Assembly (NCBI GenBank): GCA_965242865.1
Contig: CBDETK010000013.1
Location: 1,120,001-1,184,000, forward strand
DNA: 64,000 bases
Reading direction: 5' to 3'
Source of the DNA: Candidatus Latescibacterota bacterium
GTDB taxonomy: Bacteria > Latescibacterota > UBA2968 > UBA8231
The position numbers and the translations under genes are program-made. A model generated the notes under the pieces. The model had not been told where the DNA came from and did not search any database. It saw nothing but the letters and a program-made list of their open reading frames with translations. Numbering within the stretch: the stretch's first letter is position 1; each line of letters starts with the position of its first letter. Shown one piece after another: positions 3,119 through 18,241 of this stretch.

Positions 3119-4330
3119 TCAAAGCGCAGACACCGGAATTGACAAGGCCGCTTCCGCCAGCGGCAGCGATTGTTCGGCCAAACAGACCACGCCGCCGCTC
3201 CCTACAGGCCGGTTTAATTTTTTCAATGCTTGGAAGTGCCGGACGTGGTTTTTAGTGGGCGAAGCGGTCTTTTTGAACTCCAGCGGATAGATCGCGCCAT
3301 CCTGCAGCACGAGCAGATCAATTTCTTTGCCATCTCGATCCCGATAATAATAGAATGGGGCTAGACGCCCGTTGTGCCAGTAACTCTTCAGCAGTTCGCT
3401 CACGATCCAAGACTCCAAGATGGGGCCGGACATGGCCCCGGCTTCGAGCGTCTCCGGGCTAGCCCACTCGGTCAGGTAGGCGCACAGCCCGGTATCGACA
3501 AAATAGAGCTTGGGGCTTTTCACCAGCCGCTTGGTGAGGTTGGTGTAATACGGCTCCAAGAGATAGACCATTCCAGCAGTCTGTAAGATCGACAGCCATG
3601 TTTTCGCGGTATTGGGCGCGACATCCGCATCGCGCGCCAAGTCCGAAAAGTTGACTATTTGTCCGGTTCGGGCCGCCGCGGCCCTCAGAAAGCGAAGAAA
3701 GGCCAGCTCATCGCCGACTCGGGCGAGGTCGCGAATATCGCGCTGGAGGTACGTTTGCAAGTACGCGCTGTAAAAAAGGCCCCAATCCATTTGCTCGTCC
3801 AGCGCAATGGCGGGGAAATCGCCGCGCCATATAATCCGGTAGAGTTCCTTTAAGCCGAGCGAGCCGCCCGTGCGGACCCTATCGCCCACAGCGTCCGGGA
3901 TCGGCAAAAACGGCCCATCCGCCCGCCCTAGCCGCTCGCGCCGCGAAAGCCCCAAAAGCTGCACAATGCCCACTCGCCCGGCCAAGGATTCGGACGCGCC
4001 TTGCATCAAGTGAAAGTGCTGCGAACCTGTGAGCCAAAACTGACCAGGCGTCCGCTCTCGATCTACGGCCATTTTGATATAGGGCAAAAGCTGCGGCGCG
4101 TATTGGATTTCGTCGATGAGCACCGGCGGCGCGAACCGCTGCATGAACAGGGCGGGGTCTTCGCGGGCCAAGCTCTGGACTAGGGGATCGTCTAAGGTGA
4201 CGTAGGTGCGGTCTGATTGGCTTGCGTGTTTCAACAGGGTCGTCTTGCCGACCTGTCTGGCCCCGCAGACCATGAGAACGGGGAATCGGCAAGACGCAAC
4301 AAAGGCTTCGAGCGTTCGGGAGACGTACAT
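3119..4330 (-). CDS. AAA_14 ATPase with DUF4143 domain
   Basis: GARQVGKT Walker A, LIDEIQ, LTGS, ESLAGR, KSPKLYFVDTGL, EIDL...EFK. Confidence 0.92.
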   Translation of the reverse strand: MYVSRTLEAFVASCRFPVLMVCGARQVGKTTLLKHASQSDRTYVTLDDPLVQSLAREDPALFMQRFAPPVLIDEIQYAPQLLPYIKMAVDRERTPGQFWLTGSQHFHLMQGASESLAGRVGIVQLLGLSRRERLGRADGPFLPIPDAVGDRVRTGGSLGLKELYRIIWRGDFPAIALDEQMDWGLFYSAYLQTYLQRDIRDLARVGDELAFLRFLRAAAARTGQIVNFSDLARDADVAPNTAKTWLSILQTAGMVYLLEPYYTNLTKRLVKSPKLYFVDTGLCAYLTEWASPETLEAGAMSGPILESWIVSELLKSYWHNGRLAPFYYYRDRDGKEIDLLVLQDGAIYPLEFKKTASPTKNHVRHFQALKKLNRPVGSGGVVCLAEQSLPLAEAALSIPVSAL

Positions 4331-4394: not shown

Positions 4395-4448
4395 GGAGAG
4401 GCTGTCGTACCCTTTAGAATATGTCGGCCAGCTTTAACGCGAAGCCCT

Positions 4449-4565
4449 TTATCCGGTGCCTGAAATTTTCAAGTTGTTCGGCCCGGCAATGACGAGGTGA
4501 TCTGGAAGTTCAAATTCTAAGTACTCGAATTTCTTAAAATTTTTGATAACCACTTTGTTAATCAT
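4449..4565 (-). pseudogene. Truncated N-terminus of an ABC/SMC-type ATPase (38 aa)
   Basis: MINKVVIKNFKKFEYLEFELPDHLVIAGPNN then unrelated LKISGTG-stop; breaks inside the Walker A motif; ATG overlaps the end of the upstream gene. Confidence 0.7.
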
Positions 4566-4920
4566 GCCGATTCTCCTTTGGAACAAAAAAGGGAGGGCTT
4601 TCGCTCCAGACGATGCGCCCTTTTCGCAGCCAATAGTGGCAGCGGCAGGGCAAGCCGGTTACGTGGACTGAGGGTGACAGTGAAATCTGTCCGTCCACAT
4701 GTTCCGTTATGCTCCACCGTTTGTCAACTTGAGGCGACACATCCAAGTGAACAACTTGTCGGCATGTCCTGCGAGGGCAGACAATAGCTGCATAAAACGG
4801 GTGTTTGCGTCCGCCAATGATGTACACCGTATTTTTGTGGAGATCGTCCGGCAAATCCTCTACCCACTCCGTGCGGTAAGGACGGAAACGCGCCCATATA
4901 TTGAAAATCCACCTAAACAT
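4558..4920 (-). CDS. DUF6527-like putative zinc-binding protein
   Basis: VEDLPD...CPxxxC...SLSPSV...CRCHYWLRKGRIVW pattern; coupled to the E1 gene. Confidence 0.8.
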   Translation of the reverse strand: MFRWIFNIWARFRPYRTEWVEDLPDDLHKNTVYIIGGRKHPFYAAIVCPRRTCRQVVHLDVSPQVDKRWSITEHVDGQISLSPSVHVTGLPCRCHYWLRKGRIVWSESPPFFVPKENRHD

Positions 4921-6307
4921 GGCTAGTGTTATTTTTCACGAGTAAGCTCCTGTCGCCTGTTCCCATGTATCGTACCATCAATGGATGTGGCCCTCCCTCG
5001 TCCGCGGCGTTTTCATAGCATCCATGCACTAGGCGAAATCGTTGAGTCGCAAATTCGGCATTGGCGTCAAAGCGATAGGCATGAATGCGGGCCATGAAAT
5101 CGTTAAACGCCATACACGCCGCCTGCATGTTGACAGACATAACCGCCGGTTGTTCCTCGCCGACAGCGGCTAAATAGCCGGCCACGCGCTGTTGTTGGTA
5201 GTACGCCGGGTCCTTTCGCTGCCAATTTTCGGCCGTCACCTGTTCCATAGTGTACGCGCCGCGCGATAGCAGGCTTTCACCTTCTGGGTGAATGTAATGC
5301 GATACGGCATCGGCGGCGGTGATACCACCTTTCCCGTCGGCCTCAAGGTGGACTCCTACGTCAAAATAGGGAATCAGATAAGCACTTGCTAGGCAATCGA
5401 GATGATACCGGCCAAAGGCGGAATCCACGCAGCCGAAGATCACATCGCAATCGACTAAAGCGGCGACGACATCCGGTGAATCCGTCAATCCTTGGTGAGC
5501 ATCTACTTTGGTTCCCAGGCCGATCTTCTGAATAGCTCGTTCAATCGCCAGCACCTTTGGCTGCTGTGTGCGGGCGTCATCTATAGTACTGTTGATGAGG
5601 CGGTTCAGGTTTTTCTCTTCTACTATATCATCGTCCACAATGACCAACTCGCTCACGCAATTACGCATGAGTAGTTCAATGATTACGCTTCCTGTGCCAG
5701 AACAGCCCACAACCCCCACTCGCATAGTGTGCAATAAATCCAACGTGCCCTTGCCGAAGGTTTGCGCTAGCTTTTCTTGGTACGCCGTTTGGCTTCGGGA
5801 TTTGTGGGCCTTCCAGATGTGGATATTATCGCCGACTGCGGAGACCGTTGGCATATCGGCGAACGTTCCATGTGCGTCCACCGTGCGGGCCGCGATCTGG
5901 CCATTCGACAACATAATGGCGGAGCCATTTGGCCGCCCGTCGTCAAACCAATTGCATACAGAAGAAAACAATTCCCGGTCGTTGCGGTCGTCAATTTTTG
6001 AAAACCGGCCACATCCTTTGGGATGGGAATGAATAGTGACTACAGACTGTCCATTCCGATCTATATCGCAGATTTTTTCTGGCGGCAGGCAGTCGCCAAA
6101 AGGCCAAGCGACAAAATCCTCTTTTCTGACCGACAGATGATGTGGCGGATACAAAACATCCGCAACGATGAGGCGGCGATGTCTCTTCCCTGTCCCTTGG
6201 TTGCACAACAAAATGGCGGCGGCCTCCAGCCCGTCTCCGGGGAAAAGGTGGTTTTTAACCGCCTCATATTGACTCGCGGTCATGGTCAGGATAGCGGTTG
6301 TCATCAC
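4913..6307 (-). CDS. JAB peptidase-ThiF/E1 fusion
   Basis: N-terminal EAAA...HSHP...FSKIDD JAB motif; C-terminal VGVVGCSGTGS, DDDIVEEKNLNR, FGCVDS ThiF motifs. Confidence 0.88.
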   Translation of the reverse strand: MMTTAILTMTASQYEAVKNHLFPGDGLEAAAILLCNQGTGKRHRRLIVADVLYPPHHLSVRKEDFVAWPFGDCLPPEKICDIDRNGQSVVTIHSHPKGCGRFSKIDDRNDRELFSSVCNWFDDGRPNGSAIMLSNGQIAARTVDAHGTFADMPTVSAVGDNIHIWKAHKSRSQTAYQEKLAQTFGKGTLDLLHTMRVGVVGCSGTGSVIIELLMRNCVSELVIVDDDIVEEKNLNRLINSTIDDARTQQPKVLAIERAIQKIGLGTKVDAHQGLTDSPDVVAALVDCDVIFGCVDSAFGRYHLDCLASAYLIPYFDVGVHLEADGKGGITAADAVSHYIHPEGESLLSRGAYTMEQVTAENWQRKDPAYYQQQRVAGYLAAVGEEQPAVMSVNMQAACMAFNDFMARIHAYRFDANAEFATQRFRLVHGCYENAADEGGPHPLMVRYMGTGDRSLLVKNNTSHV

Positions 6308-6690
6308 CCGACTTCGGCTTTTAGCTGATTTTCTACATACTCAATATGACTGACGATGGAATCGACCCCCGGCTGCCATGAGTAATGACGCGACCAACGC
6401 TGCCAAGTCTGACCAAAATGAATCTCAGAGGCCAGAGCACCTATTGCTGAACTATCTGATTTATCAAGCGGAGGATAAAAGTAAAACATGTCCAACATCG
6501 ATCCGGGATAGCCGCTTGGAATGAGCACCATTAGCGTGGATTTTTCTACCGCATAGCCTTTGGGAATGGGAAAGTCGTCAATGAGTAGGCCATACTTACC
6601 ATTACCCTCGGCGACCTTCTTCCATTTGGACGGATAACTCGCATCCAGATATTCGTTATCCTCCGGCGGCAACTCGTAGGGATTAACCAT
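6304..6690 (-). CDS. Prokaryotic E2/UBC-like protein (family E-like), cysteine-free
   Basis: IPKGY...LIPSGYP...LDMFYFYP...WQRWSRH...W.PGVD; start at ATG 6690 overlapping the Ubl stop. Confidence 0.82.
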   Translation of the reverse strand: MVNPYELPPEDNEYLDASYPSKWKKVAEGNGKYGLLIDDFPIPKGYAVEKSTLMVLIPSGYPGSMLDMFYFYPPLDKSDSSAIGALASEIHFGQTWQRWSRHYSWQPGVDSIVSHIEYVENQLKAEVG

Positions 6691-7408
6691 GGCCTTGCTG
6701 TGCCTGTCGCCGAACGGTCTCAAAGCGTTCAATGCCGGGACGGGATAAATCGACCGCATCGTTGGCCTTGATTCTTTCTCTTTTACCGCCGTGCAGCTTC
6801 TGGTTGAGCGACCATTCGTCATCGCGCTTGTCGGCCAGTACCAAAATACCGGCCCCGGTGATTTCTGCAGAATCCACGGTGTACTTGTCGCCGTCTATGC
6901 GGATGCGGTATTGGTGCCCTTTGGGTGGGCGGCGGTCGTTCTTGCCGCACTCCTCAAGGTCAATGGCGTCGTCCGAGGTGGGCGGGATGACGAAAAACGA
7001 GTCCGCATCTTGGACGACAATCGTCATGTCATCCGCAATTTCCACATCCACACCGCCTTCAATGTCGGCAAATAGACGCCCCTGCGGGAACTTGTCGTCC
7101 CGCTCTTTGAGGGCTTTGCCGGTAGTTTTTGCTTGTGGAAGGGCGAGGTTGCGCGATCCATTGAATTCTGGCCGCACTTCATTGCGCAACGGCGGGTTAT
7201 CCCCGATCGAGCTTTTCCCCACTACAAACCGTTCTCCACCGCGAATAATGAGATGCTCCCCTGCCAAGAGAGGAATATCTATGCCATCTTCGCGGCTCAG
7301 AAAAATTCGTCCCTCGCCGCAATCGGCGATTTCATAGAGCGCGTCAATGGAAACAAGCCCCGCACGGATTGGGGTTTCCTGCCCGTCAATTTGGATTGTT
7401 GGTTTCAC
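6683..7408 (-). CDS. Multi-ubiquitin domain protein (about three beta-grasp repeats)
   Basis: Repeated I.IDG...ITG..I...VDL..PGIERF units; C-terminus QAQQG-HG; GTG start with GGAGG RBS. Confidence 0.85.
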   Translation of the reverse strand: MKPTIQIDGQETPIRAGLVSIDALYEIADCGEGRIFLSREDGIDIPLLAGEHLIIRGGERFVVGKSSIGDNPPLRNEVRPEFNGSRNLALPQAKTTGKALKERDDKFPQGRLFADIEGGVDVEIADDMTIVVQDADSFFVIPPTSDDAIDLEECGKNDRRPPKGHQYRIRIDGDKYTVDSAEITGAGILVLADKRDDEWSLNQKLHGGKRERIKANDAVDLSRPGIERFETVRRQAQQGHG

Positions 7409-7438
7409 GTTGATTTCCTCCGGTGTTGTGTTTAATGG

Positions 7439-7463
7439 GTCTCTTGTCTAGTGTACAAGAGAC
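7439..7463. promoter_or_regulatory. Perfect inverted repeat, candidate operator between the divergent Ubl operon and the higA-like gene
   Basis: GTCTCTTGT-N7-ACAAGAGAC. Confidence 0.55.
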
Positions 7464-7561
7464 GCCCGCAAGCGCAAGAGGCCATTTGCGATCCAAGTGG
7501 AACGGCAGCGGCGCGAGGAGAGACGCTCGCAGACCCAACTCGCTATAGCAAGGAGTACCCC

Positions 7562-7951
7562 ATGGCTGAAGTACTCGATTTTACCAAACCTCATTTGCTG
7601 AGAAACGAAGAAGAATACGATATCGCTGTCGCCGAGATCGATGCCCTTCTCGACGCCGAGCCGCAGCCTGGGTCGGAAGAATATGAGCGGCTGGAGTTTT
7701 TATCGGTTCTAGTGGAGGCTTACGAAGACGCGCATCTTCCGGCCTACGCAGAGGCCACGCCCCAAGAAGTGGTCGATTTTATGCTGGAGCAGAAGGGTTT
7801 TTCTCGGGACGATCTGGCGCAGTGGCTGGGCAGTAGAATCCGAACAGCGGAATTTTTCAATGGCATCCGTCCGCTCTCTATCCGGCAGATTAGCACATTG
7901 AGAGCACATCTAGGCATTCCAGCGGACTTACTGGTGGACCTTTCCTCATAG
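7562..7951 (+). CDS. HigA-like antitoxin / HTH regulator (orphan)
   Basis: RNEEEYD.A...LE.L..LVEAYE...FMLEQKG...DLA..LGS.....E..NG.R.LS...LGIPADLL; AAGGAG RBS before ATG 7562. Confidence 0.82.
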   Translation: MAEVLDFTKPHLLRNEEEYDIAVAEIDALLDAEPQPGSEEYERLEFLSVLVEAYEDAHLPAYAEATPQEVVDFMLEQKGFSRDDLAQWLGSRIRTAEFFNGIRPLSIRQISTLRAHLGIPADLLVDLSS

Positions 7952-8035
7952 TTATTCCACGGCATCGGAGCACACAAGCGTCCCTCAACAATCTAAAGCA
8001 CCTCTGACCAGTCTCATTGAAACAAGCGGAGCTAG

Positions 8036-8269
8036 ATGATGACCGAAACGAATCCAACTCAAGAACGGCCTTACCCCTTAGACCACGAGGGACGTATTGC
8101 TCGCCTAGAGGGAGTGGTCGAACAAATCGGCGTCCGGTTAGGGCGGCTGGAAACGAAGATTGACGCGGTGGAGGCCAAAATCGACGGGCTGTACCGTTGG
8201 GTAGTGCCGTTGCAGATTACGACGATCTTGGCTATCGCAGGGCTTGCGTTTAAGGCATTCGGCGGCTAG
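8036..8269 (+). CDS. Small coiled-coil protein with C-terminal TM helix
   Basis: Heptad RIARLEG...RLETKIDAVEAKID followed by a hydrophobic tail; GGAG RBS. Confidence 0.7.
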   Translation: MMTETNPTQERPYPLDHEGRIARLEGVVEQIGVRLGRLETKIDAVEAKIDGLYRWVVPLQITTILAIAGLAFKAFGG

Positions 8270-8287
8270 TACGTTCTTTCAAGCGGG

Positions 8288-8410
8288 GAGCAGAGCATCG
8301 AGTACGGCGCGGGCCTGTGTGCCGTAGCGGGTGAATAGGTCCCGCTTCTTCACGTTCTCAGCCCGCTCGCGCCGAGTGAGCGGGGCTGGCCATAGACCAC
8401 GTAGCAGATC
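8288..8410 (-). pseudogene. Degenerate ~123-bp copy of the hsdR 3' region
   Basis: Aligns by eye with 20083-20206, with scattered substitutions and a 1-nt deletion. Confidence 0.85.
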
Positions 8411-8414
8411 CCAA

Positions 8415-8448
8415 ATATTGTAGAAATTGTCAAAGTATCCTACAATAT
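8415..8448. promoter_or_regulatory. Inverted repeat upstream of the sigma-factor gene, candidate operator
   Basis: ATATTGTAG-N16-CTACAATAT perfect arms enclosing TTGTCA. Confidence 0.45.
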
Positions 8449-8541
8449 ATGGTATTCATCCTCTATAAACTTCGCGGAAGAATCGAGCCATAGAGGGCCG
8501 GAGAGCGCATTAACGACCATGGAGCAAGATTGTGAAGACAA

Positions 8542-8585
8542 CTTTCCGGTTTCCCTTCTGCAATGCGATTATTAGAGAGTAGAAG
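8542..8585 (+). promoter_or_regulatory. Putative alternative-sigma promoter, copy 1
   Basis: CTTTCCG-N17-CGATTA-TTAGAGAGTAGAA; same motif and spacing at 13551. Confidence 0.7.
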
Positions 8586-8632
8586 GGGCCTTATGTGCTC
8601 GGAATCCGCCGTTATTTAAGGAAAGGAAGGTA

Positions 8633-9376
8633 ATGGCTTGCCCATTGACTAAACGAAAAGCGACTGGGGACCTATATATCCGTCCTCTTCAAGTAGAGAG
8701 ACAGATTGATGAGGTCCTTTCCCAAGACCCATCGACGCTCCGACGACGCCTCATTGTTGCAGACCCCCAAGCGTCCGACTATCTAAGTTCGGAGTGCCTT
8801 GTCCATCTCGCTCGCTACTACCATAGGCACGGCGACGACTCTAAGACTAATGCGGTACTCTCCGTCTTACTAGGTCGCTGTGAAAAAACCCTATCGGCCA
8901 AAATCCCAGACAATGAACTCCCGACTGCGAGGGAGGTACGAGAGGAAGTGATTGGACAGTTCGGCGAGTTATTTGCTACCGATGGTACGCAAGAGAACCG
9001 CGACGACCTTGACTATTTTGAGTGTCGCTTCAATGGGGCGTTTCGCACTTTTTACATCGATATCGTAAGAAGTGAAACAGCCCCTCTAAAGCGATTAGCC
9101 CCCCTGCCAGACCAAGCCGACGACACCCACAAGGAATTGCAGAGTCCAGAAACAGCAGATAGTGCTTTATTCTGCAAAGAACTCCACGAAGCGATTGATG
9201 CTTTGCCGGATGACATGCGCAAGGCTGTCATCCTTTGCCATATCGAGGGATACAAAATCGAATCTCAGAACCCCAACGAGGCGACAGCAGCGACGATCTG
9301 CAAAGTATCAGGCCGAACCATTCGTAACCGTCTTTTGAGGGCAGCAGGGAAACTTTCTAAATTTAAGGATCAATAA
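8633..9376 (+). CDS. Sigma-70/ECF-like RNA polymerase sigma factor
   Basis: C-terminal region-4-like ELHEAIDALPDDMRKAVILCHIEG...CKVSGRTIRNRLLRA; AAGGAAGG RBS. Confidence 0.72.
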   Translation: MACPLTKRKATGDLYIRPLQVERQIDEVLSQDPSTLRRRLIVADPQASDYLSSECLVHLARYYHRHGDDSKTNAVLSVLLGRCEKTLSAKIPDNELPTAREVREEVIGQFGELFATDGTQENRDDLDYFECRFNGAFRTFYIDIVRSETAPLKRLAPLPDQADDTHKELQSPETADSALFCKELHEAIDALPDDMRKAVILCHIEGYKIESQNPNEATAATICKVSGRTIRNRLLRAAGKLSKFKDQ

Positions 9377-9387
9377 TTCGGATATTT

Positions 9388-9412
9388 TAAGTCTTTGTTT
9401 ATCAATGACTTA
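9388..9412. promoter_or_regulatory. Palindromic IHF-like site
   Basis: TAAGTCTTTG-TTTAT-CAATGACTTA contains WATCAANNNNTTR; a similar palindrome lies at 55583. Confidence 0.5.
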
Positions 9413-9436
9413 ACGTTAAAATACTAAGGAGGAGAC

Positions 9437-10108
9437 ATGTCCGTGACCCCAACCCTCAATGAGTTACCACTACGCGAGGTGTTGTATGAGTTTTCGCTAG
9501 CGAAGACCGTACCTGATGCAGACCTGCTCGACGATTTCGTTCAGCGGTTTCCGCAGTATGCTGACCGCCTCACGGAATTCGCCATCGAACTCGCTATAGA
9601 TGCTCTCCGGCCCGAGCCCGAGATCGACGCGAAGGCGACGGTTGATCTGAACCGTGTGAGTCCCGTTGTCTCGCGGGCAATGAGCCGATACCTGAATCGG
9701 CTACACGCCGTGCGCCAAACAACCGAGCCGACTGTCGACCGCGCTTCGACACCAGAAGTTGCAGATGCTCCAAATCCCTTCGCTAAACTAAACCGATCAG
9801 CGTTTCGGGAGTTAGCAGAGCGGCTCGGCGCGAACACTGTGTTCGTTGCCAAGCTGCGAGACCGCCAAGTCAAGCCGGATACCATCCCAAGCAGTTTTTT
9901 GCGGTACCTTGCAGATGCGCTTGGGACTTCACTTGACTTATTAACTGCCCACTTTGCTGTACCAAGCGCGGAACTTGGGAGCCGACAGTTTTACAAGGCC
10001 GATGACAAGCCTGATGGCAGTCAACGCCAGAGCTTCGTCGAGGCTGTTAAGAGTTCGGCTCTCAACGAGAACCAGCAGCACCAACTTCTTTCTAAGTTTC
10101 TAAACTGA
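9437..10108 (+). CDS. Hypothetical protein with XRE-like HTH (candidate anti-sigma / peptidase substrate)
   Basis: FRELAERLGANTVFVAKLRDR...LRYLADALGTS HTH-like segment; AAGGAGG RBS; stop overlaps the next start. Confidence 0.65.
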   Translation: MSVTPTLNELPLREVLYEFSLAKTVPDADLLDDFVQRFPQYADRLTEFAIELAIDALRPEPEIDAKATVDLNRVSPVVSRAMSRYLNRLHAVRQTTEPTVDRASTPEVADAPNPFAKLNRSAFRELAERLGANTVFVAKLRDRQVKPDTIPSSFLRYLADALGTSLDLLTAHFAVPSAELGSRQFYKADDKPDGSQRQSFVEAVKSSALNENQQHQLLSKFLN

Positions 10109-13100
10109 TGGACGCATTCGAGCCGATCCGTAAGTCCGCGGCGTGTCTGCACAAGGCTATCGCGGCGCGGACGGACCCTCTAGATACTACGGCACTTATT
10201 ACGGTCGCTGTGGCTCATCTAGATCTTGAACTCGTCTGTCTTGAGCCGGGTGATCCTGCTCTAAAAAATGCCCAGGCGGTGTTCGACGAACAGAGCGGTA
10301 CGATCTGCTGTGAAAAGATAGGGGATGGCACTGACCTTGCCTTGCTTGTGGCTCACGAACTTGGACATGCAGTTGTCCATGCTGGTTCGGCAGTTTGCAA
10401 GACGGATGACATTGATCCAGCTCGTTCGACTGAGACGGTCCCCGTTGGCTTGCAACGTGTCGAGGATTATGGGGCGCGGGAAAGGCGCGAATTACAGGCC
10501 AATGTTTTCGCTCGGGAGCTTCTCTTGCCCCAGAGTCTTGCACGTCGGCTCCATATTGAGGAGACCATGACCGCCTCGGCTATCGCCTCGCGCATGGGCT
10601 TGCCAAAGGCACTCGTCCGACAGCAGATATTTGACGCTCTTCTACTTCCGACGGAAGAGGAAGTAACTCCGGCGGAGACTTCGACCGATACACCGCGTTC
10701 GGATCCCTCGCAGGACCGGGCAGCCGCACATCGTGGTGCCCCGTTCCTGCTTCAGGCCGGGCCGGGAACCGGAAAAACACGGACGCTGGTAAAGCGCGTA
10801 AAATCGCTTCTAGCGGAGGACATTGATCCTTCCTCCCTACTCATCCTGACCTTCTCAAATCGGGCCGCTGGCGAGTTGTTGGAACGGCTTATGGCCATAG
10901 TCCCCGAGGCCGCTGAGCGTATTTGGATCGGAACGTTCCATGCTTTCGGACTTGATCTGATACGACGTCACTATGACCGTCTTGGCCTGTCCCCTAATCC
11001 AGTCCTGTTTGACCGCAGTGATGCGATTGATATGCTGGAGGAGCTCCTCCCAACGCTGCCTCTCGTCCACTACCGCAACTTATGGGATCCGACGATAGTG
11101 CTGCGAGAAGTGCTCCCTGCCATCTCTCGTGCTAAAGATGAGCTCGTAGATCGAAGCCGCTACCGAGAGCTCGCCGAAGCTATGCGAGCGGACGCAGACG
11201 ACAATGACGCTCGCGTGGCAGCCGAGAAGTGCTTGGAGATCGCCGACATTTATGATCTCTACGAAAGTGCCATGAGCGAACGGGATGCTGTTGATTTTGG
11301 CGATCTCATCATGCGGCCGGTATTGCTCTTAGAATCCGATCCAGCACTCAAGCACACTGTTCAGTTGCGGCACCGACACCTTCTAGTTGATGAATATCAG
11401 GACGTAAATCGGGCGAGCGCATGTTTGCTAAAAGCGATTGCTGGTGATGGCAAGCGTCTATGGGTGGTCGGCGACTCGCGTCAATCCATCTACCGCTTTC
11501 GCGGAGCGTCCCCTATCAACATGGCTCGCTTTGGCGACGACTACCCGGGGGCAGTAGTTGACCAACTCTCCGTCAATTACAGATCGACAGACCAGATCGT
11601 CGCCAGTTTCGTCAAGGTAGCTCCCCGGATGGGTGCATCCAAAGGCATGTTGCCACTTGCTCTTGACGCTGACCGAGGTTTGGGACCCGGAAAACCAGAA
11701 ATTCGGTGCTATGACACTCCCGACGACGAAGCTGGAGGTATCGCCGGAAGCATCCAAGAACTCAAAAGGGCGGGGGTTTCTCTCCGCGATCAGGCTGTGC
11801 TTTGTCGCTCGAACCGCCATCTGAATGAAATCGCCACAGCACTTGAAGCACACGGCATTCCTGCACTGCATCTCGGCAGTTTATTTGAGCGTGAGGAAAT
11901 ACGCGATTTGCTAGCACTTCTCAGCCTCGCAGTTGATCGGTTGGGTAATGGTCTCGTGCGGGTGGGAGTAATGCCGCGCTATGATCTCTCGTTGCAAGGC
12001 ATATATACCGCCTTGCACCACCTGCGGGATAGCAAGCAATCGGCCCTTTCGGGTATAGGGACGCTTGCTAAGGCTCAAGGTCTCTCGCCTGACGATTCAT
12101 CGGCATTTGCCCGCCTTGCACAGGATCTATCGGGACTCTCCCCAAGCATTTCCGCATGGGAATTTCTCTCAACGTATTTGCTTGACCACACTAATCTCGT
12201 GTGCGAGATGGCTCAAGCCACTACAGTCACCGACCGCATTCGGAACGTTGCTATTTGGCAATTTCTTAACTTCGCCCGCGAACGGCTCAAGACAGACAAG
12301 GGGTTGCTGATTCAGCGGATGCTGGATCGTATTCGGCAACTCGTACTGCTCGCCGAAGAACGGGATTTGCGCCAAATGCCTGCCGCTGCCCTCCATCTAG
12401 ACGCAGTGCGGCTGATGACCGTTCATGGTAGTAAGGGGCTAGAATTTGAAGCAGTCCATGTCCCTAGACTGACGACTGGAAATTTCCCTTCGTCGTACCG
12501 TGGCGTAAGATGCCCACCACCTATCGGTATGACTGAAGGCGCAGAGAGCTCTTCGGTCTCAAAAGAGGCCAAACAGAAACACAATCACGAGGAAGAGTGC
12601 TTGTTTTTTGTTGCCCTCTCGCGAGCACGAACCCATTTACGCCTTTACTTGGCGCATCGGAACTCTAACGGCAGGAACTGCTCGCCATCGCCTTTCTTGA
12701 ATTGGCTGCCAACGGGGACAATCGACAAAGTTGCCCATCCGGTGATCCTGCCACCGCCAGCCAACATGCACAGCCCAGGGTCTATCCAAGTGAGGCGACC
12801 CACCGAATGGCACGTCACGGACAGTACGCTTATCTCCTACGAGAAATGTCCCCGTCGCTTCTTCTATACCCATGTGTTGGGGCTCGGTGGTGCCCGTAAA
12901 GCGACCGCCTATTCGCAGACTCAGGACTGTCTCTACAAACTCATTCGGTGGGTGGGCGAGCGTCGGCTAACAGCCGAACCTACACTTAGCGAGACTGAAG
13001 ACGCTTTCGATACGATCTGGCATGCACACGGGCCAATCTCCCACAAGTTCGCTGACGAATACCGCCGCCTCGCCTTGCGGTTAATAGGTGTCTTAGTTAA

Positions 13101-13536
13101 TGCCAACACTGGACAGCATTTCCGTGAAGTCAAACCGTTGGTGATTGATTTCTTAAATGGTCGCGTGTCCATAGAGCCAGATGCGATCATCAACTTACCG
13201 GACGGAAAAGTCGCTTTGTGCAAAATCCGCACCGGCGATAAGCGCAACAACGAATATAATCGCCTTGACTACGCACTCTATCAGTTGGCCAGTCAGCAAC
13301 ACTTCGGTAACCATTCAGTGACTCAGGTTCTGTACCTTACAAACACAAACGGGATGTTCAAAGATGTGCAGATCTCGCCGAAAACGCTCAACAATCGGCG
13401 GTGTACGATTGATGGGATGCTCGGTGAGATTGCTAAGGGGAAGTTCCCACCCAAGATCAATGAAATGACATGCCCGCGATGTCCGCACTTTTTCATCTGT
13501 GATGCTATGCCTCGTGGATCTCTGACGCTCCCATAA
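10108..13536 (+). CDS. ImmA/IrrE metallopeptidase-UvrD helicase-PD-(D/E)XK-like fusion
   Basis: AHELGH and ELQANVFARELLLP; AGPGTGKT, VDEYQD, GDSRQSIYRFRGA, NYRS, TVHGSKGLEF, VALSRAR; YEKCPRRF...CPRCPHFFIC. Confidence 0.9.
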   Translation: MDAFEPIRKSAACLHKAIAARTDPLDTTALITVAVAHLDLELVCLEPGDPALKNAQAVFDEQSGTICCEKIGDGTDLALLVAHELGHAVVHAGSAVCKTDDIDPARSTETVPVGLQRVEDYGARERRELQANVFARELLLPQSLARRLHIEETMTASAIASRMGLPKALVRQQIFDALLLPTEEEVTPAETSTDTPRSDPSQDRAAAHRGAPFLLQAGPGTGKTRTLVKRVKSLLAEDIDPSSLLILTFSNRAAGELLERLMAIVPEAAERIWIGTFHAFGLDLIRRHYDRLGLSPNPVLFDRSDAIDMLEELLPTLPLVHYRNLWDPTIVLREVLPAISRAKDELVDRSRYRELAEAMRADADDNDARVAAEKCLEIADIYDLYESAMSERDAVDFGDLIMRPVLLLESDPALKHTVQLRHRHLLVDEYQDVNRASACLLKAIAGDGKRLWVVGDSRQSIYRFRGASPINMARFGDDYPGAVVDQLSVNYRSTDQIVASFVKVAPRMGASKGMLPLALDADRGLGPGKPEIRCYDTPDDEAGGIAGSIQELKRAGVSLRDQAVLCRSNRHLNEIATALEAHGIPALHLGSLFEREEIRDLLALLSLAVDRLGNGLVRVGVMPRYDLSLQGIYTALHHLRDSKQSALSGIGTLAKAQGLSPDDSSAFARLAQDLSGLSPSISAWEFLSTYLLDHTNLVCEMAQATTVTDRIRNVAIWQFLNFARERLKTDKGLLIQRMLDRIRQLVLLAEERDLRQMPAAALHLDAVRLMTVHGSKGLEFEAVHVPRLTTGNFPSSYRGVRCPPPIGMTEGAESSSVSKEAKQKHNHEEECLFFVALSRARTHLRLYLAHRNSNGRNCSPSPFLNWLPTGTIDKVAHPVILPPPANMHSPGSIQVRRPTEWHVTDSTLISYEKCPRRFFYTHVLGLGGARKATAYSQTQDCLYKLIRWVGERRLTAEPTLSETEDAFDTIWHAHGPISHKFADEYRRLALRLIGVLVNANTGQHFREVKPLVIDFLNGRVSIEPDAIINLPDGKVALCKIRTGDKRNNEYNRLDYALYQLASQQHFGNHSVTQVLYLTNTNGMFKDVQISPKTLNNRRCTIDGMLGEIAKGKFPPKINEMTCPRCPHFFICDAMPRGSLTLP

Positions 13537-13550
13537 ATTTTTTGCGACGG

Positions 13551-13591
13551 CTTTCCGTTTTCTTCCGTTCTATCCGATTAATAGAGTAGAA
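13551..13591 (+). promoter_or_regulatory. Putative alternative-sigma promoter, copy 2
   Basis: CTTTCCG-N17-CGATTA-ATAGAGTAGAA upstream of the Ubl gene. Confidence 0.7.
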
Positions 13592-13648
13592 AGCAGAGAC
13601 AGGCAATGGAGCCTATATCTAGCTCTAAGGTCAAGGAGGCCTTATATA

Positions 13649-14155
13649 ATGGATCGTATCGATGTGTTTTACCAATGTGAGGGGATCAGCGAGATCGGGC
13701 AGATCGATGTTGACGCTGACGCTACCTTCGCGACGGTCAAATCCGAGCTCGCCGACAAGCACGGCCTCGCCGAGGAAGTGATCATCTCTCTAGAGGATGA
13801 TGACGAACGAATCGACGAAAACAGGCAAGTGAAGGAATTCGCCGACCTGACCGTCATTATGGTCCACCTGAATCGCTGCCGTTGCATCGAAGCCAGTGTG
13901 AACTATAACGGTCGTACTGTCGATCACAGCTTCGGACCGAGCGCGACTATCGCCCGTGTCAAAAAATGGGCGGCTGAGGAGTATGGAATGAGTCCCGAAG
14001 ATGCCGGTGAACATTCCCTGCAAATCGTCGACACTCAAAACAGGCCAGCACCGGGGACTCATATTGGTAGGCTGGTTTGCTGCCCTGATTGCAACTTGGC
14101 CTTCGACCTCGTTGCCGACGAGCGCGTGAACGGGTCGACCGGGAGCACAGCTTGA
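13649..14155 (+). CDS. bilA: Ubiquitin-like protein of a Bil/ISG15-like defence system (two beta-grasp domains)
   Basis: V.YNG....[12 protein letters not shown]...LV..ERVNG followed by a short tail STGSTA; first gene of a Ubl-E2-JAB-E1 operon. Confidence 0.8.
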
Positions 14156-14619
14156 GCCCCCCTGACCAACGGGCATTCGAGGCGGACGTGGCAAAGGCCA
14201 CGTTCCGCCTTGGAGAACGACAAGGGCGTTGGTGCTTGATCTGCATAGATTGGCCCTTCGTCTTGATCTCTGTGACTGCAAAAGACAGACGCGAATATGT
14301 GCTACGCTTCAACTGTGCAGGTTATCCGCAAGACCCGCCCACGGGCGGCCTGTGGGATCGCACCCGGAATGCGATCTTGGAACCCAATTGCTGGCCACAG
14401 GGCCAAGGGGGTCGCGTTTCGGCAGTTTTCCGCTCCGACTGGAAGAGTGGATCTGCTTTGTACTTACCTTGCGACCGTGAAAGCATTGCTGGACACGATG
14501 GCTGGCGAACCGAGATGCCGTCAAAAATCTGGCGTCCGGCTGACGGGATCATCCAATACTTGGAAATCGTTTATGAACTTCTCCATAGCCCAGATTATAC
14601 GCCGCTGCCTTGCACCTAA
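14152..14619 (+). CDS. bilB: E2-like conjugating enzyme of the Bil system
   Basis: [17 protein letters not shown]...WP...ALYLPCDR (candidate catalytic Cys); TTG start overlaps the Ubl stop. Confidence 0.78.
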
Positions 14620-15091
14620 GCATGAACTGTCCTGTTCTTGGTTTCTCTGGCGTCGCTTGCTCACCGGCTTACGGGAGCGCGGTCACAGCGAGTCGCGGGA
14701 AAGCGGTGCTTTTCTACTAGGTTACCATAACGGCCAACGTGCCCGCATCGTTGATTTTGTCTTGTATGATGATCTCGATCCGCACTGCCTTGATACCGGC
14801 ATCGTCCGATTCGACGGGCGATATTTCGGAAAACTTTGGGATATTTGCAAAAACCGTGATCTGATTGTCGTGGCCGATGTTCATGTCCATCCGAGGGGAT
14901 CACAGCAAAGTGAGTCGGATCGCACCCATCCTATGATTTCGTGTAAAGGGCACTTGGCACTAATCCTGCCGCGTTTTGCAGCCAATCCGCTCCCAAGGCG
15001 CGAAATTGGTATCTACCGATACCAAGGGGCCAAGCAGTGGCAGAATATTGCGTCCACTGACCGGAGGGCTTTTTTCCATATCGGCCTATAG
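14573..15091 (+). CDS. bilC: JAB-family deubiquitinase of the Bil system
   Basis: ESGAFLLG...DVHVHP...QSESD JAB motif. Confidence 0.82.
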
Positions 15092-15101
15092 GGAATTATC
15101 T

Positions 15102-16466
15102 ATGAACGCTAAACCGAATGCCGACAGCCTGCACCGCTTGGTTAAGTACGCGCTCGATAGCGGAGAGGCCAAGACTCTCGCCGAGGCGGAGAAGCTATTT
15201 CGTGGCTATCGCCTTGCGCTTACCATTCACGGGGCCGAATCTCGAAGTTCACTCAATCAAGTCGCGTTGTTGACGGCGGTTGCTCTTGGCCGCCGTGTAT
15301 TCCTCGGCGGAGTTTCCGTAGAAGGCGACTTAGATGTACCGCTGAAAGTACCGCTACCGCTCCGCTCTAGGCTTCACGAGGCTGTGGGCGATCTCGGTGG
15401 ATCGGTTACGCCTTCTGACGACGAAACGCCGACCATTGCTATTGGTGGCGGCCCTCGCCCACGACAGCCTGGGTTTCACATCCGTACGGCAATCGCCGGA
15501 TGGCGCGGTGGCATCCTTCCGGCGCACTCAGAATTGGTGCCGACCCCTGGACCTACGATTCCGTTAGCGGCTATGCTGTCCGCTGGCCTCGCGGTCAATG
15601 AAGCCTTCCAGTTTGTGGACAGCGGCGGTCCTGCGGTGGGACGACGACCAATAGGATTGTCGCTGTGGCGGCCCGATGCAGACTGGCTGGCATCCGACTT
15701 AGACGGGCCTCAGATTGCCTATCTTCCATCGCGGCTTTGGCTGATCGGGCTCGGGCACCTAGGACAAGCGTATCTTTGGGGGCTTGGGTTACTGCCCTAT
15801 AAGGATCCGGGGAAGCTCTCTCTCGTCCTGCAAGATATAGATAAGATCACGCCATCGACCGAAAGCACATCGATCTTGAGCGGCGCGGGCACGGTGGGCC
15901 AAAAAAAGACCCGTGCTATGGCAGCTTGGGCAGAAAAACGTGGGTTTGCGACAGCGTTGCACGAGCGACTGTTCGATGCCAGTTTCCGCCGCCAAGATAG
16001 AGAACCAACCGTCGCGTTGTGTGGTTTGGATAATGCGCCAGGACGGCAAGCACTTGATCAAGTGGGCTTTGAGTTGATTGTCGAGGCTGGGCTTGGGAGA
16101 GGGCAACAAGACTTCCGTACCATGCGCCTGCACGTACTACCGGGGGCACGTTCGGCGAAGGAGCTTTGGAAACTGGCAGCACCTGCTGAAACAGCTACGG
16201 ATCGCCCCGCCTATCAAGAGATGCTCAAAAGTGGCGAATTGGATCGTTGCGGCGTTACGCTTCTAGCCGGTAAGGCGGTCGGTGCTCCCTTTGTAGGCAC
16301 CGTGGCTGCTACGCTGGTACTGTCTCAAGTGCTACGCTTACTCCACGGCGAGAGCCCCTATCAGCTAATCGATCTTAATCTGCTCTCTGTTGACCATTGC
16401 TCTACCGTTCCTAGTTCCAAGTGCTTTCAGTCTCTCAACCCCGGATACACTGCCGAACTCTATTGA
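15102..16466 (+). CDS. bilD: E1-like activating enzyme of the Bil system
   Basis: Inactive-like N-terminal half plus LIGLGHLGQ, LQD.D, CGLDN, EAGLG, LDRCG, GAPFVG. Confidence 0.8.
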   Translation: MNAKPNADSLHRLVKYALDSGEAKTLAEAEKLFRGYRLALTIHGAESRSSLNQVALLTAVALGRRVFLGGVSVEGDLDVPLKVPLPLRSRLHEAVGDLGGSVTPSDDETPTIAIGGGPRPRQPGFHIRTAIAGWRGGILPAHSELVPTPGPTIPLAAMLSAGLAVNEAFQFVDSGGPAVGRRPIGLSLWRPDADWLASDLDGPQIAYLPSRLWLIGLGHLGQAYLWGLGLLPYKDPGKLSLVLQDIDKITPSTESTSILSGAGTVGQKKTRAMAAWAEKRGFATALHERLFDASFRRQDREPTVALCGLDNAPGRQALDQVGFELIVEAGLGRGQQDFRTMRLHVLPGARSAKELWKLAAPAETATDRPAYQEMLKSGELDRCGVTLLAGKAVGAPFVGTVAATLVLSQVLRLLHGESPYQLIDLNLLSVDHCSTVPSSKCFQSLNPGYTAELY

Positions 16467-16573
16467 GGATTAAAAGATAAGATGCCGAACCTTAATTACA
16501 CCGCGAATAGCTTCCCTTCGAGTTGGGGCCGCTACTCCATGGCTCGCGTTCCATTGAGTAGTAAGACCGTTCT

Positions 16574-18241
16574 TCAAACGACGTTGGTTGCGGCTACAGC
16601 GGAGGCGTCGTGATGTTTCCTTTTATCGACGAGGTGTTGCTCCAATTGGTCAATCAGCCCCATCAGTTCATCGACTTTGGCGACGATGCGGTGCTGTTCG
16701 GCAGTCGGCGGGAGTGGCACAGGCGCACGAAGGAGGTCGGTATCATTGATGGCGGGATACGCGACCCCTTTCATTTGGGCCGTGACGAAATCGACAAAAA
16801 ATGGAGCGCGGAGATAGAAGAACAAGAGACGGCTATGCACCCCAGAGTGCGGATGTAAAACGGCGAATGCCGTGGAGGCAATCGGCGTTGGAGAGTATTC
16901 GCAATCAACTACGGCGATGTTGAGTAGATATGGACGAACAGTAGAGTAGATGACCGATTCAAGACGAACCAACTTTCGGGCACGGGAAGGAGCCTCGCTG
17001 GGGTCGAGAATAGGAACTGCGCTGATGATTGCACCGCGTTTGTTGTCAATCGCGCTTACGTCAATGTACGAGAACGTTTTATCAGGCACCTTCTGGCCGA
17101 GATCGTGCGCCAGATCGTGGAGCCGCACCCAAGTCCAAGACCGGGGAATCTCAAAAGGAATCTCGGCGGACATAAGAGGGCCATAGGACTTGCGCTTTCG
17201 CACCTTCTTCTTTTTAACCAGTTCCGCCTTCTCAGCAACGATCAATTCGAGCAATCGGCCCGCTGGTTCGTCCCCCGAATCCTGCTCCACCAACCGCCCC
17301 CGTACCGCAAGCTGAAGCACGGCCTCGCGCAACGGCACCAGATCGGCCGGATCCGTGAACAAGTCGTCCATCCGCTCGGCAATGCACATCCATGCAGCCG
17401 AGACCTCTTTGGGGGTAGCAGCATTCCGAAGCGTGGCGAGTGCTGAGTCTCGGCCGGCGATGCGGGCGGCCTCGCGGCTACTCCGCGCAGCCTCCAGCCG
17501 GTCAATTAAACCCATCAATTCATCGACTTTGGCGACGATGCGGTGTTGTTCTGCTTCAGGCGGCAACGGAAATAGTGCTTGGCGAGCCTTGTCCGTTCCC
17601 AGTCGCGGCAGGTTCATGCCGTGTGTTGAGGAGTTGGCATACTGCACAAAGTACGGTGACTTCAATACAAGTCGAATGAATTGTGGAGTGAGACCGACGA
17701 ATCCTCTTATTGGCATTATCTCAGAAGTACATACACCATCTTCATTGGCGATAATTACCTTGTCGAGATACGGACGTAGCTTTCCGTATAAGACATCGCC
17801 TTTGTAGAAGCGATTTTTGGCACTCTTGAAGGGTCTCATTCCATAGCGCACCCGGTTAAGAAGCCGAGAAGACACCTTCTCTATATCTTCAAGTTCAAGT
17901 ACCCAGGTCTCTTTACTGACTTCGCTAGGCTCGGCTTTCTTGGTCGTCCCGTAACTAGTGATCTCCCCCAAGTGCGTCCATTCCCAACTGACGGGGATTC
18001 CAAAAGGAAACTCGGCGTCTTTTATCGTCGGTAGCGGTTTCCTCGTTCTGATCTGATGACTTCGACGCGCTTTTTCATCCGCAATGCGTTCCAGAAGCAC
18101 CGAGGCCGATTCGTCCCCCGCATCCTGCGGCACCAGCCTCCCCCGCACCGCAAGCTGAAGCACCAACGCCCGCAGCCGCTCAACCCCTCCCGGCGCCTCG
18201 GCGATCACATCAAACGCGGCGATGAACTCCCCCGGCGTCAT
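16574..18241 (-). CDS. hsdS: Type I R-M specificity subunit
   Basis: Duplicated LQLAVRGRLV.QD, PF.IP.SW.W and PLPP.AEQHRIVAKVDELM conserved regions around two TRDs. Confidence 0.93.
   Translation of the reverse strand: MTPGEFIAAFDVIAEAPGGVERLRALVLQLAVRGRLVPQDAGDESASVLLERIADEKARRSHQIRTRKPLPTIKDAEFPFGIPVSWEWTHLGEITSYGTTKKAEPSEVSKETWVLELEDIEKVSSRLLNRVRYGMRPFKSAKNRFYKGDVLYGKLRPYLDKVIIANEDGVCTSEIMPIRGFVGLTPQFIRLVLKSPYFVQYANSSTHGMNLPRLGTDKARQALFPLPPEAEQHRIVAKVDELMGLIDRLEAARSSREAARIAGRDSALATLRNAATPKEVSAAWMCIAERMDDLFTDPADLVPLREAVLQLAVRGRLVEQDSGDEPAGRLLELIVAEKAELVKKKKVRKRKSYGPLMSAEIPFEIPRSWTWVRLHDLAHDLGQKVPDKTFSYIDVSAIDNKRGAIISAVPILDPSEAPSRARKLVRLESVIYSTVRPYLLNIAVVDCEYSPTPIASTAFAVLHPHSGVHSRLLFFYLRAPFFVDFVTAQMKGVAYPAINDTDLLRAPVPLPPTAEQHRIVAKVDELMGLIDQLEQHLVDKRKHHDASAVAATNVV

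Follow-up and report, generated by a model that had tools for sequence, protein, structure and literature searches.

The locus raises three questions: to which ubiquitin-like pathway four small overlapping genes belong, by what chemistry their products would act, and whether the copy is still complete. The genes lie in a stretch of 64,000 nucleotides (here called the window; positions 1,120,001 to 1,184,000 of contig CBDETK010000013.1, assembly GCA_965242865.1) from a Candidatus Latescibacterota bacterium, and an initial annotation, made from the sequence alone, had taken them for a little-characterized ubiquitin-like conjugation operon related to the Bil and Bub operons. Our analysis indicates that they very probably form a four-gene Type I Bub operon with separate bubA and bubB genes, which would tag targets through oxyester intermediates, would remove the tags by means of BubE, and is trimmed in comparison with its closest relatives. 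The description as a ubiquitin-like conjugation operon was therefore right, whereas 'related' understated the case: judged by sequence, the locus itself is a Type I Bub operon (formerly 6E.1/DUF6527) with its four core genes intact.

The '6E/DUF6527' operons were renamed Bub, for 'bacterial ubiquitination-like', in two preprints of November 2024, by Ye et al. (bioRxiv 10.1101/2024.11.21.623953) and by Gong et al. As described in the text of the former, the Type I components are a fusion of a JAB peptidase with an activating enzyme (E1), named BubCD, a conjugating enzyme (E2), BubB, a ubiquitin-like protein (Ubl), BubA, and a DUF6527 protein, BubE. According to the same text the pathway works without catalytic cysteines, the Ubl being held as an oxyester on a tyrosine of the E1 and then as an oxyester on a serine of the E2; the JAB domain cleaves after the Gly of BubA, and BubE is a zinc-stabilized (Cys4) Ser-His protease that strips BubA from conjugates, for which S92A and H102A were tested. 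With this biochemistry worked out in 2024, the pathway is no longer little characterized. Beyond Ye et al. and Gong et al. (2024), no literature on DUF6527, Bub, BubE or the oxyester was found in a search that could miss subscription-journal versions.

All four genes were recovered as minus-strand open reading frames (ORFs) overlapping in series, by 8 nt (ATGGTTAA) at the bubA/bubB junction, by 4 nt (GTGA) at bubB/bubCD and by 8 nt (ATGTTTAG) at bubCD/bubE, which makes translational coupling plausible. The longest ORF containing bubB extends to position 6822, but relatives and the solved BubB chain align with it only from the ATG at 6690 onwards. Pfam models matched above their curated cut-offs throughout: Multi_ubiq for BubA (1.6e-16), Prok-E2_E for BubB (3.7e-31), both ThiF (9.1e-24) and Prok-JAB (9e-8) within the single 464-aa BubCD, and DUF6527 (PF20137) for BubE (8.8e-16; 58 bits against a cut-off of 23.6). 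The G+C content of the operon region was 50-56%, compared with about 63% in the flanks. The four genes were found together in 42 of 49 related loci, the other seven comprising four without bubE, two cut contigs and one without bubCD. On the overlapping genes, the protein families and the JAB-E1 fusion, the initial annotation and these results agree.

The conjugation chemistry was read from alignments to chains of the Type I Bub system of Citrobacter sp. RHBSTW-00271, adjusted for two extra N-terminal residues of the crystallized BubCD. BubCD aligned over residues 8-440 with Citrobacter BubCD (9ea4_A, E 7.1e-71), and BubB with Citrobacter BubB (9eae_C, E 1.1e-24). The JAB residues E28 and D104 of Citrobacter correspond to E28 and D106 in the window, inside an H93-x-H95...S103-x-x-D106 motif; the adenylation arginine R227 corresponds to R236, the crossover-loop tyrosine Y370 to Y378, and the E2 residues S333, H335 and D299 to BubB S100, H102 and D67. 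Y378, R236, H93, H95, S103 and D106 of BubCD were each conserved in 46 of 46 relatives and E28 in 45 of 46 (one gap), whilst S100 and H102 of BubB were each present in 50 of 50 relatives and D67 in 48 of 50. There is no cysteine anywhere in BubB, nor in residues 340-390 of BubCD around Y378. An E1 and an E2 without catalytic cysteines had escaped the initial annotation, as had the loss of a fifth gene and of regulators described below. Homology thus gives good support to the conjugation chemistry but not to a biological role.

BubA ends in QAQQG followed by a His-Gly tail, and G239 was invariant in all 44 aligned relatives. Among the best 120 of 245 BubA homologues with E <= 0.001, 76 were stand-alone proteins, 43 were fused to an E2 and one lacked the motif; QQG occupied the processing site in 115 of the 119 motif-bearing homologues, and exactly two residues followed the Gly in 63 of the 76 stand-alone proteins. 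These counts bear out the cleavable tail that had been proposed, and the two-residue length of the tail follows from the overlap of the bubB start codon with the bubA stop. When the junction DNA of the window was compared with fused relatives reading QQG-M..., a one-base difference would be enough to convert the split into the fused form or the reverse. After exclusion of three fragments, a tree built from 117 of the BubA domains required at least 14 switches between split and fused forms, or at least four if strongly supported branches alone were counted. The four-gene layout with split bubA and bubB is thus real, common and evolutionarily labile, and represents no new architecture.

The AlphaFold2 model of BubA, built with 30 homologues (predicted local distance difference test, pLDDT, 92.1; predicted template modelling score 0.86), contained beta-grasp-like units at approximately residues 1-65, 73-141 and 165-233, in line with the three or so repeats of the earlier description. 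Its top Foldseek matches were the three-domain multi-ubiquitins of Citrobacter (9d5a, E 6.4e-10) and E. coli ZDHYS365 (9cd2), followed by linear poly-ubiquitin, and the third domain matched Citrobacter BubA(155-229) (9ea8_B) with a TMt of 0.80 and a root-mean-square deviation of 1.4 Å over 68 columns. On the evidence of the model, BubA is a 'Ubl3' protein; its sequence is only distantly similar to that of Citrobacter BubA, the similarity being too low for a safe mapping of Ca2+ ligands.

Across 45 BubE sequences, including a Type II BubE encoded in the same genome, Y33, C48, W69, P83, S84, C92 and H95 were invariant, S84 and H95 being the sole invariant Ser and His. The CPxxxC...CxCH pattern, previously listed as zinc ligands, was present (C48, C53, C92, C94 and H95), with a Cys4 site formed by C48, C53, C92 and C94; C53 and C94 were invariant in the close clade of 30 sequences, whereas the cysteines of distant members are arranged as C-x-C-x-C...C, so that the zinc site is organized otherwise in the window. 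A model of BubA(160-241) in complex with BubE scored 0.69, compared with 0.04 for the best control; the 0.69 mark was attained by 116 of 157 solved complexes and by 2 of 215 mismatched pairs, a rough calibration since our own alignments were used. The model runs agreed in at least 95% of contacts with a partner pLDDT of at least 85, and placed the BubA tail (232-241) against BubE residues 83-90 and 95. A sequence search of the Protein Data Bank (PDB) found no BubE relative (best E 0.46), which makes recall of a solved complex unlikely. Given the invariance of Ser84 and His95 and the modelled position of the BubA tail on that pair, His95 is probably catalytic and not a zinc ligand, and to that extent the earlier ligand list needs correction. 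The modelled complex fits a hydrolase acting at the BubA C-terminus, and for the same reasons a protease suits BubE better than the E3-like adaptor, sensor or target that had been suggested.

Because the residues correspond one by one to those of the Citrobacter system, a mechanism can be proposed. BubA would be made as a three-beta-grasp precursor, from which the JAB domain of BubCD would trim the His-Gly dipeptide and expose Gly239. The E1 domain would adenylate Gly239 (with Arg236 and ATP) and take BubA onto Tyr378 as an oxyester, from which it would pass to Ser100 of the cysteine-free BubB, aided by His102 and Asp67, and would then move from Ser100 to lysines of targets. BubE, as a putative zinc-stabilized Ser84/His95 protease with a hydrophobic N-terminal extension, would remove BubA from the conjugates. 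A deletion of about 1.5 kb has removed from this copy an OLD-like ATPase gene that overlaps bubE in the near-syntenic locus L003 and 30 other close relatives, and a divergent CapH/CapP-like regulator pair and a promoter-like element have been lost as well. The features concerned are collected in Table 1.

Table 1. Features of the Bub locus and its surroundings in the window (positions are those of the window)
Feature	Position	Strand	Remarks
bubA	6683..7408	-	241 aa; GTG start, GGAGGA 7 nt upstream; Ubl with three beta-grasp domains
bubB	6304..6690	-	128 aa; ATG start overlapping the bubA stop; cysteine-free E2
bubCD	4913..6307	-	464 aa; JAB/JAMM peptidase (~1-160) fused to E1 adenylation domain
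bubE	4558..4920	-	120-aa DUF6527 protein; hydrophobic N-terminal extension, Cys4 site, Ser84/His95 pair
Stub of OLD-like ABC ATPase gene	4452..4565	-	38 codons; ATG overlaps bubE stop; breaks off within Walker A
Deletion scar	4409..4471		63 bp, against 1553 bp in L003 (ATPase gene body); BLASTN
Conserved leader of bubA	7409..7493	-	85 nt; alignment with L003, L005 and L015
Remnant of 5' part of capH-like helix-turn-helix gene	7497..7543	+	47 bp; BLASTN match to L003 6650-6696, inside L003 HTH_3 gene 6367-6747
Divergent neighbour of bubA	7562-7951	+	Matches N-terminal 121 of 402 positions of PADLOC PD-Lambda-2_B (2.2e-29)
hsdR-like patch	8288-8410		124 bp; 87-94% identical to part of hsdR of L003, L005, L015 and L004; ~12 kb from the window hsdR
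Sigma-70 region-4-like protein	8633-9376		Precedes the UvrD fusion gene
223-aa protein without family	9437-10108		Precedes the UvrD fusion gene
IrrE/M78 peptidase-UvrD helicase-PD-(D/E)XK nuclease fusion	10108-13536	+	1142 aa; PADLOC GajB-type, best 8.4e-72
Bil operon, complete	13649-16466	+	PADLOC BilA 1.2e-51, BilB 4.9e-60, BilC 4.1e-66, BilD 8.9e-170
AAA_14 + DUF4143 gene	3119-4330	-	PADLOC candidate PDC-S01 2.1e-106; flanks the deletion scar; syntenic in L003

The lost fifth gene was traced by BLASTN against the syntenic locus L003, which is about 93.4% identical in the operon and the chromosomal flank. Window positions 7493-4472 are colinear with L003 6916-9937, and positions 4408-1432 with L003 11491-14470; the remaining stub shares 94% identity with residues 1-32 of the ATPase in L003. 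The deletion junction was spanned without differences by contigs assembled from runs X1 and X3, of which one may be the source of the window itself. A separate study yielded a contig (X5; about 97.7% identical) in which 1543 letters occupy the deletion site; as so close a strain still has the ATPase segment, the deletion is recent and polymorphic. When the nearest 32 of the 49 related loci (L003-L033 and L036) were compared, an ATPase gene of about 540 aa behind bubE was intact in 28, broken in three and absent from one (L023), and it overlapped the end of bubE in the 24 loci in which gene ends were compared. The 17 more distant loci were without the ATPase gene.

The ATPases of the relatives matched Pfam AAA_15/AAA_21 and PADLOC models of the NsnB, AriA, GajA and PtuA types, with no Pfam match to Toprim or to any other C-terminal domain. 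In an alignment of 26 sequences the Walker A, signature, Walker B and H-loop motifs were invariant, and invariant acidic residues were also present in the C-terminal third. Over about 610-620 aligned columns, an AlphaFold2 model (pLDDT 88.2) matched GajA as well as the OLD nuclease of Thermus scotoductus (6p74, E 1e-11); the TM-scores were low (0.3-0.4), and the nuclease domain is putative.

The region upstream of bubA was also reduced. In L003 a divergent pair of Peptidase_M78 and HTH_3 genes (CapP/CapH type) lies between hsdS and bubA, of which the window keeps only the 47-bp remnant, placed by BLASTN coordinates because the MAFFT alignment misplaced this patch. The adjacent 219 bp of L003, which hold the start of the helix-turn-helix gene and a promoter-like TTGACA-17-TATCTT element recognized by consensus match (L003 6879-6907), are absent from the window. 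In L003, L005 and L015 the genes hsdR, hsdM and hsdS stand upstream of the Bub operon, whereas in the window about 9 kb (~7550-16590) containing the Bil operon and other genes separate the restriction-modification (R-M) genes from bubA. The hsdR-like patch has the appearance of a scar left by the rearrangement through which the Bil segment arrived. Between the bubA leader and a 44-bp capH patch the X5 strain has 3577 letters, where L003 has 219 bp and the window 2 bp; the spot upstream of bubA (7497-7500) is a hot spot of insertion and deletion. The leader itself contains a perfect 7-bp inverted repeat (7461-7455 and 7447-7441, with a 7-nt spacer), 33 nt upstream of the bubA start, and the same pattern was found in L003, L004, L005, L011 and L015; the repeat might serve as an operator or form a hairpin in the leader. 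According to Ye et al., CapH with CapP, or CapW, are frequent but not obligatory neighbours of Bub operons.

Several points weigh against the reading of the locus as a working Type I Bub operon. No PADLOC or NCBIfam model naming BubA, BubB or BubE matched; as these libraries contain no Bub models, the empty result is not evidence against the assignment. The text of Ye et al. defines Type I by a Ubl-E2 fusion (BubAB), whereas bubA and bubB of the window are separate genes in different frames. At least 31 operons with separate Ubl and E2 are nevertheless classed as Type I in Table S1 of the same preprint, and together with the repeated switches in the BubA tree this is why fusion was not treated as defining. 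Ye et al. also report that BubE was weakly active in vitro, cleavage taking 48 h, and that no Bub operon protected E. coli against phage. In the window, a scan for consensus matches found no sigma-70-like site upstream of bubA, and the copy may be silent or inert after losing the promoter-like element, the regulators and the ATPase gene. The ratio of non-synonymous to synonymous substitution rates (dN/dS) was 0.10-0.40 for all four genes against L003 and L005 (L015 was left out because an indel upsets the coordinate mapping after bubA), and this shows past purifying selection on all four; such low values mostly reflect history predating the deletions and cannot tell the present use of the trimmed copy.

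The alternative that survives best is that the operon is a silent or decaying remnant, its four genes unexpressed or without phenotype and still intact because the losses are recent. The three separate losses relative to L003 (93% identical over operon and flanks) point in this direction, as do the ATPase segment retained by the X5 strain, the GTG start of bubA in place of the ATG of L003, L005 and L015, and other decay in the related loci, where the ATPase was broken in 3 of 32 and bubCD in 2 of 32. Yet none of the four ORFs is shortened or lacks a catalytic residue, and the Shine-Dalgarno sequence and the 85-nt leader are retained. The ATPase-less form was moreover assembled without differences from both X1 and X3, with the caveat on their source given above; and Bub operons further removed do without such an ATPase, the Citrobacter system working without one, as described by Ye et al., and a Neotabrizicola plasmid having none. 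On balance a remnant is possible but we consider it doubtful.

A second alternative concerns the role of the operon and not its integrity. The operon lies in a low-GC defence island with a type I R-M system, the Bil operon, the PDC-S01-like gene and the UvrD-type helicase gene with GajB-type matches, and from this context a defence role is inferred. Ye et al. drew their own suggestion of a defence or stress-response role from context as well, the targets not being known in their account. The operon might not be anti-phage but serve a stress response, in which Ca2+-dependent BubA filaments would release the Ubl on a change of ion levels. Gong et al. (bioRxiv 10.1101/2024.11.21.623966) describe Ca2+-dependent filaments of Ubl3 proteins from Bub and Bil operons, BubA of the window is a Ubl3 by its modelled fold, and the text of Ye et al. 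reports no phage protection so far. The defence-island setting argues otherwise, as do the OLD/GajA/PtuA-like ATPase carried by relatives and the occurrence of BubCD homologues on 94 plasmid records, 53 of them conjugative, and a stress-response system of this kind seems rather unlikely.

Least plausible is the idea that the DUF6527 protein is an E3-like adaptor, a transfer factor or a target and not a protease, for although Ye et al. allow either Ubl transfer or proteolysis for a Ser/His pair near the BubA C-terminus, the 48-h cleavage was slow and the modelled interface alone cannot separate transfer from hydrolysis, conjugation in the Citrobacter system proceeds without BubE according to the same preprint, and bubE is missing from four of the 32 close loci that keep the rest, a better fit with a dispensable negative regulator than with an essential ligase.

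With the four genes read as a Type I Bub operon of tagging and de-tagging enzymes, the locus is one more example of a family whose chemistry is known; the comparative lead lies in the OLD-like ATPase gene that overlaps bubE in one subgroup. The overlap is conserved across at least six phylum-level labels, and the ATPase and Bub genes are co-inherited from 40% to 89% ATPase identity in loci labelled Latescibacterota, Rhodothermales, Binatia, Nitrospirales, Gamma- and Alphaproteobacteria and Chloroflexota. Losses have occurred in both directions, bubE having gone from L019, L024, L026 and L036 and the ATPase from the window and L023. The four loci without bubE keep bubA, bubB, bubCD and the ATPase gene, with a decayed bubE remnant in L036 and no trace in the others.

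Other results speak against a functional link. None of 80 metagenome loci with distant ATPase relatives (24-39% identity) had Bub genes nearby, in a scan that yielded distant relatives alone and from which the reverse association of close orthologues was out of reach; the wider family of this ATPase thus occurs independently of Bub. Three ATPase paralogues of the same genome (31-37% identity) had no Bub genes in the fetched flanks, and two of them (L052 and L054) adjoin housekeeping-type genes. More distant Bub operons, including those on plasmids, are without the ATPase. Linked defence genes, too, may travel together without working together. A functional coupling of the ATPase to the Bub system is accordingly offered as a tentative suggestion. 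Equally speculative is its fuller form, a five-gene Bub system in this clade that couples Ubl tagging to an OLD-type ATPase/nuclease; BubA conjugation might, for instance, switch a nuclease that BubE then resets, and the window would be a natural ATPase-null allele, still polymorphic among close strains. Should this hold, the ATPase would represent the output or target that has long been sought for a Bub pathway. Such a partner goes unmentioned in the main text and Table S1 of Ye et al. (no occurrence of 'ATPase', 'nuclease' or 'effector'). Natural strains that carry or lack the gene, at about 97.7% identity, provide matched variants for asking what Bub tagging acts on. In a more distant subclade (L034, L039, L044 and L045) the ORF behind bubE, which begins at or before the bubE end, encodes a protein of about 930-980 aa with a ResIII helicase domain in place of the OLD-like ATPase, and an alternative partner module may thus occupy this position.

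Three ubiquitin-like systems are present in this one genome. Besides the Type I Bub operon, a Type II Bub operon with Multi_ubiq, a DUF6791+ThiF fusion and DUF6527 was found elsewhere (L001; G000:C13:3435203-3438379), and the neighbouring operon of the window was identified by PADLOC as Bil (1e-51 to 9e-170), as the separation of the two operons in the initial annotation had implied. The divergent neighbour of bubA, which occupies the place of capH/capP in relatives, matched no Pfam or NCBIfam family. The identity of BubA was 86-89% between Latescibacterota- and Rhodothermales-labelled metagenome-assembled genomes (MAGs), and 72-73% with respect to MAGs of Binatia, Nitrospirales and Gammaproteobacteria. 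These identities across labels point to a recent cross-phylum transfer of the cassette. Several of the sequence sets that contain this stretch are labelled sponge metagenome.

Two other assignments were considered for the four proteins and rejected. None of them matched a PADLOC Bil model, whereas all four Bil models matched the neighbouring operon. As regards Cap2/Cap3 of Type II CBASS (cyclic oligonucleotide-based antiphage signalling system), only the ThiF region of BubCD (~160-307) matched PADLOC E1-E2 models (best 7.9e-11); the N-terminus of BubCD is a JAB and not an E2 domain, and there was no CD-NTase gene among the scanned neighbours.

The closest known system is the Type I Bub operon of Citrobacter sp. 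RHBSTW-00271 (BubAB, BubCD and BubE; PDB 9ea4, 9ea5, 9ea8, 9eae and 9eav), as presented by Ye et al. Both share the JAB-E1 fusion, a Prok-E2_E-type E2 with Ser-x-His and Asp, the crossover-loop Tyr of the E1, a three-beta-grasp Ubl ending in Gly, and a BubE with a Ser/His pair, a zinc site and a hydrophobic N-terminal extension. They differ in that bubA and bubB are separate in the window, with a two-residue tail, and fused in Citrobacter; in the zinc ligands, which follow C-x4-C...C-x-C in the window and are given as C57, C59, C61 and C99 for Citrobacter; in the absence of CapH/CapP from the window; and in the fifth, ATPase gene that the clade of the window normally carries. Split Type I operons are also known, such as that on the Neotabrizicola shimadae plasmid NZ_CP069372.1, which has the same order of Ubl, E2, JAB-E1 and DUF6527 (RefSeq: multiubiquitin domain-containing protein, E2/UBC family protein, ThiF family adenylyltransferase and DUF6527 family protein); its BubCD is about 44% identical to that of the window, its Ubl gene is annotated at 360 nt, and neither an ATPase gene nor a stub follows bubE. 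Type II Bub operons (E. coli ZDHYS365 and the second operon of this genome) share the Multi_ubiq Ubl, the ThiF E1 and a DUF6527 protease with the same invariant Ser/His, but their E2 (DUF6791) is fused to the E1 and there is no JAB domain. The Bil (bacterial ISG15-like) operons likewise comprise Ubl, E2, JAB and E1 genes in a defence setting, but differ in using cysteine thioesters, in having separate JAB and E1 genes and in lacking DUF6527. The likeness to the OLD family (Thermus scotoductus OLD 6p74, GajA of Gabija, and PtuA of Septu and retrons) concerns the fifth gene of the relatives, of which the window keeps 38 codons.

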